Assembly (NCBI GenBank): GCA_043822305.1
Contig: JBDRBU010000047.1
Location: 1-10,017 of the forward strand
Length of the DNA stretch: 10,017 nucleotides
Direction: 5' to 3'
Source: Candidatus Firestoneibacteriota bacterium
GTDB taxonomy: Bacteria; Oederibacteriota; D2-FULL-39-29; JBDRBU01
In this document: positions 283 through 7,457 of the stretch, in pieces
Layout of the letters: each line of letters begins with the position of its first letter
Numbering within the stretch: position 1 is the stretch's first letter
Translations under genes and position numbers: made by a program
The notes under the pieces: model-generated
What the model was told of the DNA's origin: nothing
The model's database searches: none
Seen by the model: only the letters and a program-made list of their open reading frames with translations

Positions 283-1209
283 CTAAATTGTTTTACTAGC
301 TTCTTTTATGAGGTTTATAACTTCGTATAGATTTTCATCGTTTTCTAAACTAACTTCAAAACACGGCACACTAAACCAAAATTTTTGAACACTTTCAGCG
401 GGTTTTCTTATTTTGTGATGTTTAATTAATTTCCTTCCTCTCTCATATGAAACGGGTATAATTATGTTTATCTTCTTTTTTCTAAATTCAATAAATGCAA
501 GATTCTTGTTTCTTTTAATAGATATATAATATTTTCGTGGATTGAAAATAAATGAAGAATCGATATCCAATACTTCTTGTTTTATCTTCTCATATAATTC
601 CTTTATCTCATCTGATGCTTTTTCAAGATGGCTATCTTCCGTAAAGGTTTTTATCTCTTGAGCTACTTTTTGAACAGCACCATCCACTTTTGCTATCTTT
701 GTTATCGATTCACTTGTTTTATGTGGCTTAATTTGATTGAAAACAATTATATCATTCTCATATTTTTTTATTTCCCAGATTTCAATCGGTAAATCTTTAA
801 AGTTTATTGCTTGTTTTTGATATTCTGTATATTGGGAGGAAATAAAAATCACTCTTGATTGCGACCATTCAATATCATTTCTACTTAAGCGTGTGTTTTT
901 ATTTTCATTATATTCTAAAATAAAATCCGCTTTATTATTCAATAATAAAGCAAGATAGGCATAACCTTGATCTATTACGCTAAAATTTTTATCCTTTTTA
1001 TATTCGATAATAACAAACGAATTTGTTAATTTATCGAAAGCGAGAGTATCAATTCTTAAATTATTTAATTGAAATTCAGATTTTACAAATTCTAATCCAA
1101 AAACATCTTTAAGATTTTTCTCGGTTATATTTTGTATATCCTTTTCTAATTTAAATTGAGATTGATTTATTTCTTTCAAGCTGTTTTTATCCTGTGAAAA
1201 TATTACCAT
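283..1209 (-). CDS. PD-(D/E)XK nuclease, NucS/DUF91-like N-terminal domain plus DUF5655-like C-terminal domain
   Basis: LEKDIQ...RIDTLAFD...FVIIEYKK...SVIDQGYAYL gives the E..D..ExK..QxxxY pattern. The C-terminal region (FTEDSHLEKAS..IKELYEKIKQEVL..PRKYYISIK..NLAFIEFRKKKI) resembles DUF5655. Confidence 0.8.
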   Translation of the reverse strand: MVIFSQDKNSLKEINQSQFKLEKDIQNITEKNLKDVFGLEFVKSEFQLNNLRIDTLAFDKLTNSFVIIEYKKDKNFSVIDQGYAYLALLLNNKADFILEYNENKNTRLSRNDIEWSQSRVIFISSQYTEYQKQAINFKDLPIEIWEIKKYENDIIVFNQIKPHKTSESITKIAKVDGAVQKVAQEIKTFTEDSHLEKASDEIKELYEKIKQEVLDIDSSFIFNPRKYYISIKRNKNLAFIEFRKKKINIIIPVSYERGRKLIKHHKIRKPAESVQKFWFSVPCFEVSLENDENLYEVINLIKEASKTI

Positions 1210-1311: not shown

Positions 1312-1971
1312 TTAAGGTTTCAACCAAAGAGCCATCACATACCCATTAATGTCTTTTTTTCTAGAAATCATTTTTTTGTATTTATTCTTATTATTTTTAA
1401 CGTCTTCAAGTAATTCAGTGAATAATCGGCTTGAATATGAACCAGAAGAATGTGGAACACCTATAACAAATTTTTTAGGAAAACTTAAAGAGCAAAATTT
1501 AAAGGCTTCTTTACCAACAGCAATTATAATATAATTATCCGGACATTTTTTTATCTCTTTTCTTAAAAATTTATCTATACAAGTTCTTATAGTCTGTAAT
1601 GGTATTTTTTCAAACGTTTCTTTTTCTAGACATTCACATTTAACCAATTCTGTCCAAATTATGGGCCCATTAAAATTCATAATTTCTATAAATTCTCTTA
1701 TCTTTTTGAAATAACCCCAATTCTTTTCTTCCCAATATTTTACCGTAGATTCGTAGGAACATTTGTTTTTTATATAATACTTTCTCTGTTCTTTATCTGT
1801 GTCTGAATGGCCCGGATTTAGACCTACAACTATGACACCGTTTTTTCCTTTATTGTCTTCAAAAAATAAGCATCTAGGTAATATACCCATCCTTGGATCG
1901 CTAATAACCCCCTCACAATTTAGATCGCATTTAACTAGTTCACTTCCCATTTTCTCAATAAATTTCTTCAT
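1312..1971 (-). CDS. Uracil-DNA glycosylase superfamily protein
   Basis: Motif A VIVVGLNPG, WTELVKC, C..FLRKEI, IIIAVGKEA and a motif B-like VIGVPHSSG occur in the canonical UDG order. N-terminal Cys residues (CDLNC...PRC) could bind metal. Confidence 0.75.
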   Translation of the reverse strand: MKKFIEKMGSELVKCDLNCEGVISDPRMGILPRCLFFEDNKGKNGVIVVGLNPGHSDTDKEQRKYYIKNKCSYESTVKYWEEKNWGYFKKIREFIEIMNFNGPIIWTELVKCECLEKETFEKIPLQTIRTCIDKFLRKEIKKCPDNYIIIAVGKEAFKFCSLSFPKKFVIGVPHSSGSYSSRLFTELLEDVKNNKNKYKKMISRKKDINGYVMALWLKP

Positions 1972-2003: not shown

Positions 2004-2351
2004 TCACTCATCCCATTTATCATCTTTTTCTTCAACAGTGATTTCTATCCGAGTCGGCATTCCGGCCTCTTTAGAGCGTTTGAGTTTTTCTTCGTGTACT
2101 TTTTTTGAAAAATGTTCGCAATAAAACTTACTATTCAGAAACTCTTGACATTATCTGCATTCTTTTGGAACATTTTTTGGATCATCTGGAATTTCTTCTT
2201 TTTTTGAACACCAATCATAAGGTAAAATTTCAAAACATTTAGGATATCTTCCTTTACCATATTTGATTATTATATTTTGAGCATAAGTCTTTTTTCTCCC
2301 TTCACGCATTCCTCTCGTCTTTTCTATGCCTTTTCTATGACTAGCACACAT
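2004..2351 (-). pseudogene. Small Cys-rich protein gene interrupted by one in-frame TAA (2151-2153)
   Basis: SD GGGGTGA at 2358-2364 precedes the ATG at 2351 (MCASHRKG...). After ...PKECR-TAA the same frame continues 48 codons (CQEFLNSKFYCEHF...KDDKWDE) to TGA at 2004-2006. The stop falls inside a CxxC (CR*C). Confidence 0.55.
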
Positions 2352-2394
2352 AATCATTCACCCCAATCATCGTTATTAATAATAGGTGTTTCTA

Positions 2395-2403
2395 TTTTTA
2401 AAC
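2395..2403. promoter_or_regulatory. Putative bidirectional TATA box between the divergent 2351(-) and 2424(+) genes
   Basis: TTTTTAAAC, with a TTTAAA core at 2397-2402 that is 21 nt upstream of the ATG at 2424. Confidence 0.45.
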
Positions 2404-2423
2404 TGATATTTCTAGTATTATTT

Positions 2424-5054
2424 ATGGCTAAACATAATAAAATGAAGATTACTAATCAAAATATAAAATATAATAAAATATGGTTATCTAAAGATAAATA
2501 TATTTTCCGTTTTGGCTATGGAAATCATTGGTTTATAAAAAAATTTGTAGTTTTATACAAAATATTCTTAGTTGAAAGAAAGAAGATTAATAAAGAAACA
2601 CTTAAGGAGATAACGGATATTTTTAACAAATTCATAGATTCAATTGAAGATAAAAAAATTAAAAAGGATGCTGAAGAATACTTTTTTTCTCCGCTAGATT
2701 TCAGAAAATCAGATAATATAATAGATTTTGATAAATTTAATGATGTTCCCAATCTAGATGATTCTGCAAGAAAATATTACTTTTTATATTTAACTGGAAT
2801 TGGAATGCAATCAGGGATTAAAAAAAGAATTGGGAATCTGCTATATTCTGATAGAAATATAACGATTTCAAAGATAATTAAGAAGATCCCAAAAATCCAA
2901 AAGGAAGAAATTGAAAAAAAGAAAAAGCAAGATAAAGAACCTAGATCTGTAAAAGACAATACCCGAACAATATTCTCAGATTTCCATGCAGAAATTAGAA
3001 ATTTTAGGCAACTTCTTACTTATTTTGGAATATTACCCCCCGAAGAAGACGGTTATGAAATGAATGAAATTGGGAATCTAATCTATTTTGCAGACTCTAT
3101 TTTAATAATGGCGATATGGGAACATCAAAAAATTAAGATGAGATACTATAATCCTTATACGAGTAGGATTAATCCTCTAAATGTTGAGGATAATTATAAA
3201 ACAAAAAAAGATTTCAGTGATTTTTCTGTGAATCCCTATATAGCTCTAATAAATATAATCGAAAAATTAAATTCAATAAATCAAGATCAAGCATATCTCT
3301 CTTTTGAAGATTACAAATTTTTTATTTGTAGAGAGGCTCCATCTGATTTAGATAGAGTTATAAAGAAAATTTTAGATTATAGAAATTTAAAGGAGGATGA
3401 AAAGAATAAAATAAAAGAGATATTCAATAACAGACCAAAAACAAGGAAATTTTCTATAAATAAGACTAAAGCAAGTACAGATGATTTTTTGAAAGAAATT
3501 TCAAATCTCTTATATGGGTTATATGAGTATAAGTATACAAAAGGAAATCCTTATTATCCAAACACAGTAAGATACTCCAAGGGGATATTCAAAGTAAACA
3601 ATATTTCCGATTTCATTAAGCATAGCAAATTCATAAAAGAAATTGAGATATATTTAAAATGTTACGATAAATTCTATAAGATTCTATCTGCCGCATCAAC
3701 TTTAAATCTAATTCATAGTGCCTTTGAGAAATCAACAGAAGAACATAAAAAAATATTATTAAAAATTAAATCAGAATATATTGATGATTTTAGGAAAGAG
3801 GATATTAAACTTAAAAACATCTTTCAAAAGTGGAAACGTTACATATCTTTTATTGATTGGAAATTGTTAGTATTTTGCTATGTTCATATTTTATCTTTAT
3901 ATAAACGAAAGTTATATTTATCAGGACCCTTAATTGATATTACTGGGGTAGATCAAGAAGAGTTAAAATCTCTTTTATTGATGTTTGAGAACTGTATCAA
4001 TAAAGGAGAGTATAATCTTAATGAAAAAATACAATCATCTCGCTTTTTAGACACAGACGAAGAAGAAGATAAAATTGAGAGATGGTTAAAAATAGAATTG
4101 AAGACTTCTAATTATTCAACAATCAAAGAACAAATAAAAAATGAAGAAAACGATATTAAATATAATATCGTAGATGGTCAAAGAGAAAGAAAGAGGAATC
4201 TTAGAATGATGAAATTAGTTCAGTATGAAAGATTTCATAAACATTTAATTATAGATCTGATAAGAAAGGATTATCCTGTCAATAAATGCGATTCTTGTGA
4301 TAAAGAATTTAGTGGGAACGAGCCAGAATGTCATCACATAATTCCTTTTGAAATTTATGGTCCAGATAGCCCCTACAATTATGCTTTCTTATGTAAGAGT
4401 TGTCATAAAATATTTACTCATAAAACATCAAAGAATGAAAGAAATAAATTAATTAAAAACTTAAAATTTAAGGGAATTGTAAATATAGATAATTTCAGGA
4501 AATTGATCAAAGAAGGAGAAATAAGAAAAGAACATTTGGACGTCTTGCTAGATGAGGGTTTCATTCATATTGTATCCTACTTAGATTTATTGAAAATGCT
4601 TAAAACTTCTAAACTTCAATATGATAAATTAGATAGTATTATATCTAAAGTAGGTCCCTCAAGGAATAGGTGGAACCGTGCGATGCAAACAACATTCTGG
4701 TTTAAAGAACCTGCCTCTTGTGAATCCTGTAAGGCTAAATTTAAATCAAACGAGCCAGAATGTCATCATATAATATATAATTCGATTAAAGGGCCTGAAA
4801 GTCCAGATAACTACACTTATCTTTGTAGGCCCTGCCATGATTCTATTACATATAATAGACAAGATAAGGGAGAGATAATCAAAAATTTAGTAAAAAATAA
4901 AATAATCGATAAAGAGTCTATTGAAAATTTAATATTAAACAACGAAATTTTATTTGAGCATTTAGATTTCCTGTTGAAAGAAGGTTTCATATCTGAAGAG
5001 ACTTACAATCGATTAAGAAAAATATTCAAGGATAAAGAGAAATTTAATCAATAA
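2424..5054 (+). CDS. Putative type IIS-like restriction endonuclease: AlwI-like N-terminal recognition region plus two tandem zinc-binding HNH domains
   Basis: Likely start is ATG 2424 (MAKHNK) or 2442. The region 3003-3383 (RQLLTYFG...EIGN...HQKIKMRYYNP...VNPYIALINII...LSFEDYKFF...VIKKILDYR) resembles AlwI-family winged-helix domains. HNH1 is CDSC..ECHHII..N..LCKSCH (4287-4406) and HNH2 is CESC..ECHHII..N..LCRPCH (4719-4838). The gene is adjacent to MTase genes. Confidence 0.75.
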   Translation: MAKHNKMKITNQNIKYNKIWLSKDKYIFRFGYGNHWFIKKFVVLYKIFLVERKKINKETLKEITDIFNKFIDSIEDKKIKKDAEEYFFSPLDFRKSDNIIDFDKFNDVPNLDDSARKYYFLYLTGIGMQSGIKKRIGNLLYSDRNITISKIIKKIPKIQKEEIEKKKKQDKEPRSVKDNTRTIFSDFHAEIRNFRQLLTYFGILPPEEDGYEMNEIGNLIYFADSILIMAIWEHQKIKMRYYNPYTSRINPLNVEDNYKTKKDFSDFSVNPYIALINIIEKLNSINQDQAYLSFEDYKFFICREAPSDLDRVIKKILDYRNLKEDEKNKIKEIFNNRPKTRKFSINKTKASTDDFLKEISNLLYGLYEYKYTKGNPYYPNTVRYSKGIFKVNNISDFIKHSKFIKEIEIYLKCYDKFYKILSAASTLNLIHSAFEKSTEEHKKILLKIKSEYIDDFRKEDIKLKNIFQKWKRYISFIDWKLLVFCYVHILSLYKRKLYLSGPLIDITGVDQEELKSLLLMFENCINKGEYNLNEKIQSSRFLDTDEEEDKIERWLKIELKTSNYSTIKEQIKNEENDIKYNIVDGQRERKRNLRMMKLVQYERFHKHLIIDLIRKDYPVNKCDSCDKEFSGNEPECHHIIPFEIYGPDSPYNYAFLCKSCHKIFTHKTSKNERNKLIKNLKFKGIVNIDNFRKLIKEGEIRKEHLDVLLDEGFIHIVSYLDLLKMLKTSKLQYDKLDSIISKVGPSRNRWNRAMQTTFWFKEPASCESCKAKFKSNEPECHHIIYNSIKGPESPDNYTYLCRPCHDSITYNRQDKGEIIKNLVKNKIIDKESIENLILNNEILFEHLDFLLKEGFISEETYNRLRKIFKDKEKFNQ
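4287..5030 (+). repeat. Intragenic tandem duplication of an HNH plus helical module (offset 432 nt / 144 aa)
   Basis: The exact 20-nt repeat AACGAGCCAGAATGTCATCA occurs at 4317-4336 and 4749-4768. At protein level, IKNL...EI..EHLD.LL.EGFI follows each HNH. Confidence 0.9.
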
Positions 5055-5802
5055 GCTCTACATTTTTTATAGATAAATTATCTTCTTCCAACCTATCTTT
5101 AATCATCGGCAAATATCCTTCTTTATTTAATTCAAAACCTATACATCTTCGTTTAGCTAACTCAGCTGCAATTAATGACGTTCCTGAGCCGAGAAAGGGA
5201 TCCAGAATTATTTCCTCTGGATTTGTGAATATCTCAATCATTCTCTTTATATATGGGACTGGAAATATTGCTGGGTGTACCATAAATTTTTTCCCTACAG
5301 ATCCAAATTTTTTATTAATGTTCCAAATATTTATTTTTGGAATTTTTTTATTGATTTTATAGTCAAAAAAACTAAAATCATTTATTGAATATTTGTCTGA
5401 TTTTGTAAATATTAAAAAATATTCGAAGTGATCTCCTAGATTACTTGGTCTTGGTATCCCACTCGATTTATGCCAATAGTGGACATCTCTAATCCTAAAT
5501 CCTATTTTCTCCATTTGTTTTATGAAATCATAAGGAATTAATACAAGATTTTTTTTATAACTTTTTGTGTTGATGTTTATTATCGCTATTCCATCATCAG
5601 TCAACACTCTAAAAGTTTCTTTCCATACTTTATATACTCTATTAAGATAAGTTTTATAATCTTCTTTATATCCAATTTGATTATCAACTTCATAATTTTT
5701 TAAGTTCCAATAGGGTGGAGACGTAATCATCATTTTTACACAATTATCTGAAATTTCTTCCATACTTTCTGAAGATTTAAAGAAAATTTTATGCATTAAC
5801 AT
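5044..5802 (-). CDS. Beta-class amino-DNA methyltransferase (m4C/m6A, N6_N4_Mtase family), here called M2
   Basis: Catalytic TSPPY near the N-terminus, then HPAIFP and SAM-binding DPFLGSGT near the C-terminus (beta order). SD GGGGTG at 5813-5818 favours a start at ATG 5802 (or 5796) rather than 5844. Confidence 0.92.
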   Translation of the reverse strand: MLMHKIFFKSSESMEEISDNCVKMMITSPPYWNLKNYEVDNQIGYKEDYKTYLNRVYKVWKETFRVLTDDGIAIININTKSYKKNLVLIPYDFIKQMEKIGFRIRDVHYWHKSSGIPRPSNLGDHFEYFLIFTKSDKYSINDFSFFDYKINKKIPKINIWNINKKFGSVGKKFMVHPAIFPVPYIKRMIEIFTNPEEIILDPFLGSGTSLIAAELAKRRCIGFELNKEGYLPMIKDRLEEDNLSIKNVELID

Positions 5803-6382
5803 TATCAATTTCCACCCCTTGAAATATATTATCAAAATTTTCATTTATATTTATCAATAAACATCTATCATTTTCTTCAGTAGTAGATTTAATAATCCTT
5901 TCAATAGATTCTTTAAAAGAAACTGAGATGTGTTTTATGATATTCCCCTTTCCATCATCTTCTGTTTTTAGCCATACATTTCCTGGATCTTTTCCCAGTT
6001 TGTGATAATTTTTTGCTCTTTTACCCCATTCAACATCTTTCCATATATGTCTTTCTCTAATTGGGTCCTTATTAAAATAATAGTGATTATTCTTTGAGAA
6101 GAACAATATTTCAAATATATTGTTACTAAAAAAAACGCCTTCTTTTTTAGTTTTAAAATTAGGAACTAAAATAACATTCCGAAGTTTGTAATTGTTGATG
6201 TTCTCCGCAATAATAAACGAAGAAAAAATAAGGCAATTATTTTTCAAATAATTTTCTGTTATTATCCAAATAGTGCCATCATTAGAAATTTGAAAATTAT
6301 ACTTATCAATTATTGAGTTAATTATTTGTTTTGATTCGTCAACATTTTTACCCAATAAATTAATTATTACAGATCTATACAT
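5789..6382 (-). CDS. Degenerate, probably catalytically inactive, beta-class methyltransferase-fold protein
   Basis: It retains DGTIWII, EILFFSK..YYFNKDPIR, GKDPGNVW and IERIIKSTTEENDRCL, collinear with the neighbouring MTase, but has no (S/D)PPY and no FxGxG. It has its own SD GAGGT (6389-6393) and overlaps both neighbours. Confidence 0.75.
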   Translation of the reverse strand: MYRSVIINLLGKNVDESKQIINSIIDKYNFQISNDGTIWIITENYLKNNCLIFSSFIIAENINNYKLRNVILVPNFKTKKEGVFFSNNIFEILFFSKNNHYYFNKDPIRERHIWKDVEWGKRAKNYHKLGKDPGNVWLKTEDDGKGNIIKHISVSFKESIERIIKSTTEENDRCLLININENFDNIFQGVEIDNVNA

Positions 6383-7425
6383 TCTTTAACCTCTTTATTT
6401 TTTTGTGAAAATCTTTGGCTGATACGATGCTCTGCAATTTCACAGTACTTAATCTCTTTATCTATACCGATCCATTTCCGATTCAATTCGTTCGCTACCT
6501 TACAAACAGTCCCACTTCCATTAAAGATATCAAGAACAACGTCATTTTCATTAGAAGACATTTTAATTATCCTTTTTATCATCTCTTCAGGAAACGGACA
6601 AGGGTGTGCCTCACCAGTTGAAGGGTGTTTAATTTTTTCCTTTTTACTAATATTTACAACTCTGTTAATATACCAAATATTATCAGATAAATTCTTCTTA
6701 ACGATATCTTCCTTTGAATTAATCAACCCATCTAATTTTGCTTCAATCTCTCTTATTGTTTCGTCCATTAATATTTGGTTTACATAGTTTTCTGCCTGTG
6801 TTTTTAATAGTTTTTTATATTGTTCAATCTTATTTTTTACAGAAATTAACTTATCTTTGTTTATTCTCTCATCAAATACCCAGAAATCTTCAGGATTCTT
6901 CCCCTTGTTATTGCATCTTTTATCGGTTATCCACTTAGCTGGAATTCGAACATGATCTAAATTAAATATATAATCTTGTTTATTTTTTATAAACCAAAGT
7001 ACGTTTTCGTATCTTCCAAATAGTCTAGTTCGTGGTGTTTCTCCCCCTTCGAATTTCCAGATTATCCAATTTTTCAAATGAAAATCTAAATCTTTAAAAA
7101 TATTATAAAAAAAGACGCCCAACGGAAATGTCTCTTTATCAATGATTGTTTGTGCAACATTCCAAAAAATAGCACCATTATCCTTTATAACTCTTTTACA
7201 TTCAATAATTATTTTTTTATGTTCTGTGATATAATCTTCAAATAAGTAATCCTTTTCATAAGATTTTCCTAAGAAATAGGATGGACTAGTTATTATTAAT
7301 GATACAGATTTATCAGGGAGCTTTTTAAGGGTGTCTAATGTTTCACCGCATATTATTTTATTATGTATATTATCAATTTCTTTAATTTTATTAAGATTCT
7401 TTTCGAAAATTATCATTTTTCTCAC
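6367..7425 (-). CDS. Beta-class amino-DNA methyltransferase (m4C/m6A) with TSPSY motif and helical insertion, here called M1
   Basis: Motifs TSPSY, KNWIIW, RYENVLWF, FNLDHVRIP, HPCPFP and DIFNGSGT. SD GGGGTGA at 7431-7437 favours GTG 7425 (or ATG 7416) as start. Confidence 0.9.
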   Translation of the reverse strand: MRKMIIFEKNLNKIKEIDNIHNKIICGETLDTLKKLPDKSVSLIITSPSYFLGKSYEKDYLFEDYITEHKKIIIECKRVIKDNGAIFWNVAQTIIDKETFPLGVFFYNIFKDLDFHLKNWIIWKFEGGETPRTRLFGRYENVLWFIKNKQDYIFNLDHVRIPAKWITDKRCNNKGKNPEDFWVFDERINKDKLISVKNKIEQYKKLLKTQAENYVNQILMDETIREIEAKLDGLINSKEDIVKKNLSDNIWYINRVVNISKKEKIKHPSTGEAHPCPFPEEMIKRIIKMSSNENDVVLDIFNGSGTVCKVANELNRKWIGIDKEIKYCEIAEHRISQRFSQKNKEVKECIDL

Positions 7426-7457
7426 TTTATTCACCCCTTATCTATTCTTTCCAATCT

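Follow-up and report, generated by a model that had tools for sequence, protein, structure and literature searches.

The DNA methyltransferases of the beta class have been described as enzymes for which dimerization is a defining feature (PMC11380664), and the order of their motifs is considered to impose the requirement to dimerize (PMC7544214). The identical subunits of EcoP15I and of CcrM divide labour between them, and in M.BceJIV each adenine is methylated by one monomer while the target recognition domain (TRD) of its partner is inserted into the major groove of that DNA (PMC11380664). A 2020 review of the beta class, in which the words 'inactive' and 'pseudo' are absent, discusses heterodimers for ciliate and mammalian enzymes and names fixed active/inactive pairs for eukaryotes only (PMC7544214), and a 2025 structural paper calls the bacterial N6-methyladenine enzymes monomeric or homodimeric (PMC12485025). 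Here, we describe gene X, located at 5789 to 6382 on the minus strand of contig JBDRBU010000047.1 (10,017 nucleotides, the whole of which is referred to as the window; assembly GCA_043822305.1, Candidatus Firestoneibacteriota bacterium) between the genes of two methyltransferases, M1 and M2. We consider it probable that X and M2 together make up a hard-wired, asymmetric DNA methyltransferase dimer of the beta class, with M2 as its catalytic and X as its non-catalytic half.

In human METTL3-METTL14 and in the ciliate complex MTA1c (MTA1-MTA9, AMT1-AMT7) an active enzyme of beta motif order is joined to a paralogous pseudoenzyme, as proposed here for X and M2; the pseudoenzymes of the METTL14/MTA9 type have an eroded motif IV, bind no S-adenosylmethionine and support substrate binding or the positioning of loops (PMC7544214, PMC12485025). 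These complexes are eukaryotic members of the MT-A70 family, have RNA or ApT DNA as their substrate and depend on additional DNA- or RNA-binding modules (zinc fingers; p1 and p2), whereas X-M2 is prokaryotic, falls into PF01555, lies in a restriction-modification cassette and occurs in both fused and split forms. No MT-A70 family was found among the Pfam matches of X at E-values up to 0.1 and, judged by its sequence, X is not a member of MT-A70 although the proposed arrangement would work like those of METTL3-METTL14 and MTA1-MTA9. EcoP15I Mod2, CcrM and M.BceJIV have the same fold as X, and in them one subunit or TRD serves the DNA methylated by the other (PMC11380664). However, they consist of two identical active chains that become asymmetric only on DNA, whereas the asymmetry of X-M2 is genetic, one chain being without the catalytic motifs and the other having a shortened TRD segment. 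The closest solved relatives, M.RsrI and M.MboIIA, have the FNKD..R and GK.P.NVW segments in common with X (Foldseek E about 1e-8, TM by query 0.59-0.67), but both methylate adenine at N6 and carry DPPY and FxGxG, whereas X is without these two motifs and stops about 20 residues after strand beta1. MhoVII, a fused YhdJ and D12 enzyme, was considered as the same system and rejected for its different architecture (PMC12898733). In open-access full texts, REBASE lying outside the scope, no earlier report of a prokaryotic active/inactive beta-class pair was found; provisionally, such a pair has not been described before.

Fold and motifs of X

M1, X and M2 are three overlapping minus-strand genes in the window, with the following features (residue numbers are those of X):

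5789 to 6382, minus strand: X, a 197-amino-acid beta-class methyltransferase-like protein, predicted to be catalytically dead and a non-catalytic subunit (open reading frame (ORF), partial PF01555 match, AlphaFold2 model, Foldseek, conserved family)
6390 to 6393, minus strand: GAGG, Shine-Dalgarno-like, 7 nucleotides before the ATG of X (read from the sequence)
6350 to 6361, minus strand: NLLG, residues 8-11, at the presumed place where motif IV would follow the first strand (model strand E2-8; profile alignments begin at residue 16-19)
5972 to 6070, minus strand: hyper-conserved basic loop, residues 105-137, at the TRD position between motif VIII and motif X (conservation, profile alignment)
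5834 to 5854, minus strand: ININENF, residues 177-183, at the motif I position, where M2 has PFLGSGT (hhalign ends at X 176 and M2 201)
5044 to 5802, minus strand: M2, an active-type beta-class methyltransferase with TSPPYW as motif IV, PFLGSGT as motif I and a shortened TRD segment, the proposed catalytic partner of X (PF01555 positions 1-214 of 221, E 8e-43)
6367 to 7434, minus strand: M1, a complete second beta-class methyltransferase (SPSY, FNGSG) of 355 amino acids, encoded by the first gene of the M1-X-M2 operon (PF01555 positions 1-220 of 221, E 4.7e-52)

The first-pass annotation had taken X for an uninterrupted ORF of 197 codons that has its own Shine-Dalgarno sequence and overlaps both neighbours, as is borne out by the list of ORFs and by the GAGG upstream. 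The overlap with M1, the stop codon of which lies at 6367-6369, amounts to 16 nucleotides, and that with M2, which is in the +1 frame, to 14 nucleotides if M2 starts at the ATG at 5802. The longest ORF of M2 spans 5044-5844; the start at 5802, which yields 252 amino acids, is the probable one, being preceded by GGGGTGG at 5812-5818 and giving a length equal to that of the orthologues in four related loci (L003-L006; 250-252 amino acids, 56-67% identical). X is present as a single copy in a genome of 2.15 Mb that is bacterial by 16S rRNA.

Each of the flanking enzymes carries both catalytic motifs (SPSY and FNGSG in M1, SPPY and FLGSG in M2), and neither kind of string occurs in X, in agreement with what had been noted at first reading. 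SPPY is generally associated with N4-cytosine enzymes. It has been noted as motif IV of an N4-methylcytosine enzyme (PMC5867850). Motif IV in the form (D/N/S)PP(Y/F/W) is absent from X and from all 31 rows of an alignment of its short homologues, and regular expressions detected motif IV-like or motif I-like strings in none of the 212 X-domains that were stored. The match of X to PF01555 (N6_N4_Mtase; 35.4 bits, cut-off 26.7) covers profile positions 31-185 of 221 only, so that it leaves out the two ends in which motif IV and motif I are located; only 14 residues follow ININENF in the chain. With the two defining motifs tested for and absent, X is, on its sequence, not an active member of PF01555 and is expected to be inactive in methyl transfer to DNA.

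The fold appears to have been kept. The AlphaFold2 model of X, built with a 45-row alignment, reached a mean predicted local distance difference test (pLDDT) value of 92 and a predicted template modelling (pTM) score of 0.89, and Foldseek placed M.RsrI, M.BceJIV, M.MboIIA and CcrM at the top (probability 1.00, E about 1e-8 to 2e-6), with chains of MTA1c and METTL3-METTL14 at lower rank (E 1e-4 to 7e-4). Additionally, the X profile matched the solved structures of M.RsrI (5.8e-12) and M.MboIIA (1.7e-8), X itself matched the MTase_II models of PADLOC (E 8e-7), and the X-family and M2-family profiles aligned with each other at a probability of 98.3% (E 1.2e-14), residues 19-176 of X lying on 54-201 of M2 and the alignment stopping just before the PFLGSGT of M2. 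As modelled, X thus has the fold of a beta-class N6/N4 methyltransferase, its parts following each other in the beta order (IV-VIII, TRD, X, I). The description of X as a paralogue of its neighbours needs correction if a recent copy is meant: BLASTP aligned X with M2 at an E-value of only 1.1 and with M1 at 0.005. A role as controller protein was dropped, X having no DNA-binding regulator fold.

Distribution of X and its linkage to M2

A word-indexed search returned 92 short homologues of 108-345 amino acids, mostly 188-205, with 40-69% identity to X, and 223 longer ones of 346-2000 amino acids, typically 440-500, of which the best 120 were listed. The stored set of 212 proteins was scanned with profiles built from the loci: 90 consist of the X-domain alone (median 195 amino acids; the three above 230 are X plus a partial M2), 116 of X followed by an M2-type domain, and six have a further domain upstream of X-M2, bringing the fused proteins to 122. 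When 1.84 billion representatives were searched exhaustively with the profile, 411 matches had an E-value of 0.001 or better, and 120 and 47 of them passed 1e-10 and 1e-30, respectively. Among the 137 new representatives, 66 scored at least 90 bits and 65 of these were without both motif strings; ordinary SPPY...F[AS]G[ST]G enzymes appear from 87 bits downward, the weaker profile matches including ordinary active enzymes. Scanning one genome per species yielded 49 loci, in Pelagibacterales, Bacillota, Bacteroidota, Campylobacterota, Paceibacterota, Woesearchaeota, Heimdall- and Loki-type archaea, Bathyarchaeia and haloarchaea. Among the cultured carriers are Salinicoccus luteus DSM 17002 and Sulfurimonas sp. 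CS5 for the fused form, and H. walsbyi C23 and Natrinema sp. for the split one.

For selection, the tree and the model of X a set of 45 rows was used, comprising the window and 44 loci, with five loci that are broken or cut left out (L009, L019, L025, L047, L051). Among 37 pairs with at least 60% identity in X, six had unsaturated synonymous divergence in both domains, and in these the ratio of non-synonymous to synonymous substitution rates (dN/dS) was 0.13-0.43 for the X-domain and 0.05-0.20 for the M2-domain. The only close pair of split loci, L026/L038, was saturated, with proportions of non-synonymous and synonymous differences of 0.15 and 0.86, respectively. By these sequence comparisons the X-domain is under purifying selection, a check that had been put forward together with the first reading of the gene. 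That X is a functionless decaying remnant of a third methyltransferase, an outcome the first-pass annotation had itself raised, would suit the loss of both catalytic motifs and the occasional broken copies: in a Pelagibacteraceae single-cell genome (L009; 6995-7583 and 8321-8803) X is divided over two ORFs and the nuclease reduced to 160 amino acids, in a Ruminococcus metagenome-assembled genome (MAG; L047, 6995-8080) the N-terminal half of the X-domain is missing from the fusion and the nuclease gene is fragmented, and the protein P0250 is degenerate. With a length steady at about 195 amino acids, 12 residues invariant across 31 sequences, dN/dS in the above range, a fold that is predicted with confidence, no catalytic strings in any of the stored domains and a family extending from Pelagibacterales to Asgard archaea, we give a remnant practically no credence.

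The first-pass annotation had X heterodimerizing with M2 or M1 and had looked to fusions as a sign of partnership. When all ORFs of the 49 loci were compared with the window proteins by BLAST, ten loci were found to be split (L003-L006, L009, L026, L038, L046, L048, L050), 36 fused (34 of the standard two-domain form, the N-truncated L047 and L049 with a triple M1-X-M2 chain) and three cut by a contig end (L019, L025, L051). An M2-type domain follows X in all 46 loci that are not cut, and in the fusions the X-like domain is directly N-terminal to the active domain of M2 type. It is conceivable that X partners M1, or both methyltransferases, rather than M2 specifically: an M1-like methyltransferase is encoded directly upstream of X in 45 of the 49 loci, triple fusions M1-X-M2 exist in L049 and P0197, the best pairwise BLAST match of X within the window is M1, and P0240 (651 amino acids) joins a methyltransferase of another motif order to the N-terminal side of X, in a chain that ends with X and contains no M2. 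Against this, X is fused to M2 in 36 loci and in 122 of the 212 proteins, and M1 retains a full GKNPEDFW segment of its own. Moreover, the upstream partner varies, with about 355 amino acids in the clade of the window, about 270 in the fused clade and another motif order (FxGxG before DPPY) in P0113, where a chain of 978 amino acids continues through X into M2, whereas X-M2 stays the same. In Natrinema (L050) an overlapping X-like and M2-like pair has no M1 or nuclease beside it, and the same holds for plasmid PL100 of Haloquadratum walsbyi C23 (L132, 60895-62387), where the overlapping genes are annotated as 'DNA methyltransferase' (X-like) and 'site-specific DNA-methyltransferase' (M2-like) and no M1 or HNH nuclease is nearby; X-M2 is the constant unit because these two carry the pair without M1 or nuclease. 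From its sequence, the PL100 pair is possibly an orphan dead/active pair in a tractable strain of a cultured haloarchaeon. Sequence and models together support M2, not M1, as the partner of X, so that the M2 part of the earlier suggestion stands and the M1 part, which we regard as very improbable, does not; given P0240, X and M2 may have become separated on more than one occasion.

A metagenome scan from the M2 alignment, in which the generic patterns TSPPYW[DN]L and DPF[LAV]GSGT were used, kept at least 80 loci with 22-46% identity by the best aligned segment and 22-34% where most of the query matched. X profile matches were obtained in five of 80 loci kept, a sixth locus with such a match being the Haloquadratum plasmid L132, and the one in L096 (E 5.5e-14), checked for its position, falls on the M2-like gene itself; these data say little on M2 orthologues occurring without X.

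The separation of X from M2 in the window could itself be an assembly frameshift, which had been considered for the junction at 5789-5802, or could reflect a programmed frameshift that makes a fused X-M2. The fused form is the commoner one, M2 lies in the +1 frame across the 14-nucleotide overlap, and the read-derived contig pieces over the window (5336-5375, 5856-6056, 6181-6355 and 7164-7202; one DNA run contained 0.14 of the sampled words and another run of the same study 0.00; no RNA run with them was found) fall outside the junction. On the other side, about 90 short proteins are known and the split state recurs in ten independent loci, bacterial as well as archaeal, the junctions of split loci differ (overlaps of 4-32 nucleotides or gaps of 3 and 9 nucleotides between the longest ORFs), split forms are without the linker of 25-45 amino acids found in fused forms, and M2 has its own ATG and GGGGTGG. 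In the maximum-likelihood tree of the X-domains a branch with support 100/98 parts 32 bacterial fused rows from 13 others, namely all ten split rows and three archaeal fused ones; two changes are needed for the split state, of which the starred branches force only one, and because of this tree the split is taken to be old and inherited and not a scatter of recent frameshifts. A programmed frameshift was dropped since the junctions differ between split loci, and a frameshift of either kind is extremely improbable.

The closest relatives of the window cassette are found in MAGs of Heimdallarchaeota and Woesearchaeota (L004 and L003), the nearest being the Heimdallarchaeota MAG. Identities to these two are 67-69% for M1 and M2, 52-56% for X (56% to the nearest) and 47-49% for the nuclease, which suggests, at the level of sequence, transfer of the cassette between the domains Bacteria and Archaea. 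Six pattern matches on viral contigs contained one locus, and a phage family was ruled out, this sole locus being the same cassette at a contig end. Collections of plasmids and phages gave one plasmid record (H. walsbyi PL100) and two records of one mycobacteriophage, the match of which was rejected as a member of the X family (24% identity, an ordinary methylase).

The basic loop, the modelled complex and an undivided relative

The long basic loop pointed out in the first-pass annotation, YFNKDPIRERHIWKDVEWGKRAKNYHKLGKDPGNVW, corresponds to residues 101-137 of X, and the accompanying statement that M2 has only a short and unlike segment there agrees with the profile-profile alignment, in which M2 is gapped across the loop. 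The 12 invariant columns of the 31-row alignment are all in or beside FNKDPIREKHIWKDVEWGKRxKNYxxxGKDPGNVW, and the invariant residues of the loop are D106, R109, H112, E118, W119, R122, Y126, G130, K131, P133 and W137. Over the 45 rows, residues 106-131 reached a mean conservation of 0.89, the 45 interface residues one of 0.58 and the other 126 residues one of 0.38. Residues 106-131, which contain eight Lys/Arg, two His and four Asp/Glu, are outside the predicted interface with M2; because of the value of 0.89, the strongest constraint on the dead protein falls on the segment that the model leaves free. The loop follows the motif VIII-like FFSK and precedes the helix that leads to strand beta1, which is the TRD position of the beta class; in M.RsrI it aligns to the region flanked by motifs VIII and X. 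An approximate, transitive offset derived from profile matches places the TRD of M.BceJIV (167-194) at residues 105-132 of X. From position, conservation and exposure of the loop and by analogy with the TRD of M.BceJIV acting in trans, we infer that X supplies DNA recognition in trans.

The complex of X (45-row alignment) with M2 (47-row alignment), a check already suggested with the first-pass annotation, was modelled with an interface score from predicted aligned errors (ipSAE) of 0.89 in each of three runs, as compared to 0.00 for the best of three controls. The mark for this score was reached by 116 of 157 solved complexes and two of 215 mismatched pairs, counts that hold roughly as own alignments were supplied here. 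The runs showed 119-123 contacts, at least 97% contact agreement and a partner pLDDT of at least 86. Matching stretches of the two proteins form the modelled interface (44-105, 132-138 and 148-153 of X; 79-159 of M2), which is what a pseudo-twofold beta-class dimer would give. The interface of M.BceJIV consists of helix alphaC, strands beta4-beta6 and loop-45 (PMC11380664); loop-45 corresponds to about residues 74-76 of X (an approximate transitive offset, no superposition), inside the modelled interface stretch 74-79. This result indicates likeness to a known kind of dimer and not binding of X to M2, because beta-class homodimers are in the PDB and X and M2 correspond to the two parts of what is a single gene in other genomes. 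The natural fusion P0100 (442 amino acids, 113-row alignment) was modelled with a pLDDT of 91 and a pTM of 0.92, and the arrangement of its two domains is therefore confident; a structure search found no solved chain covering both the X and M2 domains, the best TM by query for P0100 being 0.45 with one domain only.

X might also be solely an obligate structural partner that meets the requirement of the class for a dimer and stabilizes or positions the catalytic loops of M2, with a loop that does not recognize DNA sequence. This would be in line with the near-invariance of the loop across divergent members, which is unusual for a specificity element, with the contact of GKDPGNV (residues 132-136) to 122-126 of M2 in the model, and with the ciliate complex MTA1c, in which the pseudoenzyme MTA9 'positions MTA1 substrate-binding loop' (PMC12485025). 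By contrast, the eight Lys/Arg and two His of residues 106-131 are placed outside the predicted interface, exactly this segment is lost in M2 and kept in the intact relative P0267, and the equivalent region of M.BceJIV is a TRD acting in trans (PMC11380664); we therefore regard a purely structural role as unlikely.

P0267 is an intact single-domain protein of 276 amino acids (full PF01555 match, 193 bits) which carries the TSPPYWN and PFLGSGT of M2 type and the loop of X type, KDRIRIPQKYRGKDWGGREYKMNPKGKDPGNVW, in one chain. Its full-length alignment with M2 shows 33% identity (E 2e-49) and leaves M2 without 13 residues inside the loop region, and it is 29% identical to X over 172 residues (E 4e-16). 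The fact that X and M2 barely match each other directly but both match P0267 fits the duplication of a homodimeric enzyme. Uncharacterized metagenomic SPPY methyltransferases of the P0267 type share the loop with X and the motifs with M2, and differ from X-M2 in being one complete domain, presumably a homodimer. As a hypothesis for which one such relative was examined, a homodimeric SPPY-type methyltransferase may have been duplicated, after which one copy lost catalysis and the other the loop. Whether X-M2 is a product of duplication, degeneration and complementation in the strict sense, a prokaryotic obligate enzyme/pseudoenzyme with the loop only in the dead chain, catalysis only in the other and recognition strictly in trans, we judge to be an evenly balanced question.

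Following this, we propose that X packs on M2 through the matching stretches (44-105 of X against 79-159 of M2) and that its exposed basic loop (105-131), at the TRD position, would reach the DNA that M2 methylates, acting in trans as the TRD of M.BceJIV does for the substrate of the other monomer. M2, having lost the segment, would supply base flipping and methyl transfer and would depend on X. The pair would probably be derived from a duplicated homodimer, with the TRD retained but catalysis lost in one copy and the opposite in the second. M1 would methylate separately, presumably the other strand of an asymmetric site, and the convergent HNH protein would be the nuclease of a type II restriction-modification cassette.

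Several points weigh against this proposal. All evidence is computational. The motif checks were regular expressions, by which fragments cannot be judged, and decaying copies do occur (L009 broken, L047 truncated, P0250 degenerate). Co-occurrence alone does not single out M2 when M1 is present in 45 of 49 loci, and P0240 has X without M2 in the same chain. The pass of the complex may reflect the model's memory of solved beta-class homodimers, and halves of split genes tend to pass. The pLDDT of the loop is lower than that of the rest (83-85 in X alone, and 64-86 in the fusion model, where no other part of the N-domain is predicted with less confidence). Finally, the loop is near-invariant though the family is only 26-55% identical overall, unlike a variable specificity determinant, which argues, from sequence conservation, that it is no variable specificity element; the whole family may share one site, or the loop may contact the backbone or a flipped or orphan base, or position loops of M2.

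The surrounding cassette and its implications

Further genes of the window are the following:

2277 to 5054, plus strand: large convergent nuclease with two tandem zinc-ribbon HNH motifs (PF01844/PF14279), an ORF of 925 amino acids with the probable start near 2424; presumed restriction partner
283 to 1209, minus strand: protein of 308 amino acids matching the PADLOC candidate defence family PDC-S18 at full length (E 7.5e-108) and Pfam DUF5655
1312 to 1971, minus strand: ORF of 219 amino acids between the PDC-S18 gene and the nuclease, with a sub-threshold match to the uracil-DNA glycosylase superfamily (23.6 bits, cut-off 24.3)

Relatives of the HNH protein are encoded in 42 of the 49 loci, and the methyltransferase genes and the nuclease gene beside them are kept as a unit, as in a type II cassette. 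The two CxxC...HH...N...CxxCH motifs of the window nuclease (4287-4838, plus strand) are about 144 residues apart; two full motifs were also found in L003 and L004, and one full motif plus a second HH in L005. The nuclease relatives of 680-750 amino acids in fused-type cassettes mostly show one full HNH motif by regular expression, and short fragments none. As suggested by this sequence arrangement, a monomer might be able to cleave both DNA strands with the two HNH sites of its chain. The nuclease had no match among the restriction-enzyme models of PADLOC and none among solved structures. A PDC-S18 gene is nearby, and the restriction-modification cassette therefore sits in a defence island; the ORF at 1312-1971 had no match in NCBIfam or PADLOC. 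In M1 the GKNPEDFW segment is separated from the HP...FP motif by an insertion (about residues 190-260) of some 80 residues, rich in charged residues and predicted to be helical, which is absent from the M1-like enzymes of 270 amino acids in the fused clade.

Annotation pipelines label proteins of the X family 'site-specific DNA-methyltransferase', and the short ones are counted as enzymes even though, from their sequences, they would not be able to act alone. The split, fused and apparently undivided forms make up a series for testing how a beta-class dimer shares recognition in trans and catalysis. If the proposed pairing is true, X-M2 would be a minimal bacterial and archaeal model of the division of labour in METTL3-METTL14 and MTA1-MTA9, available in nature as one or two chains, and prokaryotes would have reached the fixed active/inactive solution inside ordinary restriction-modification cassettes, represented many times over in the sequence databases.

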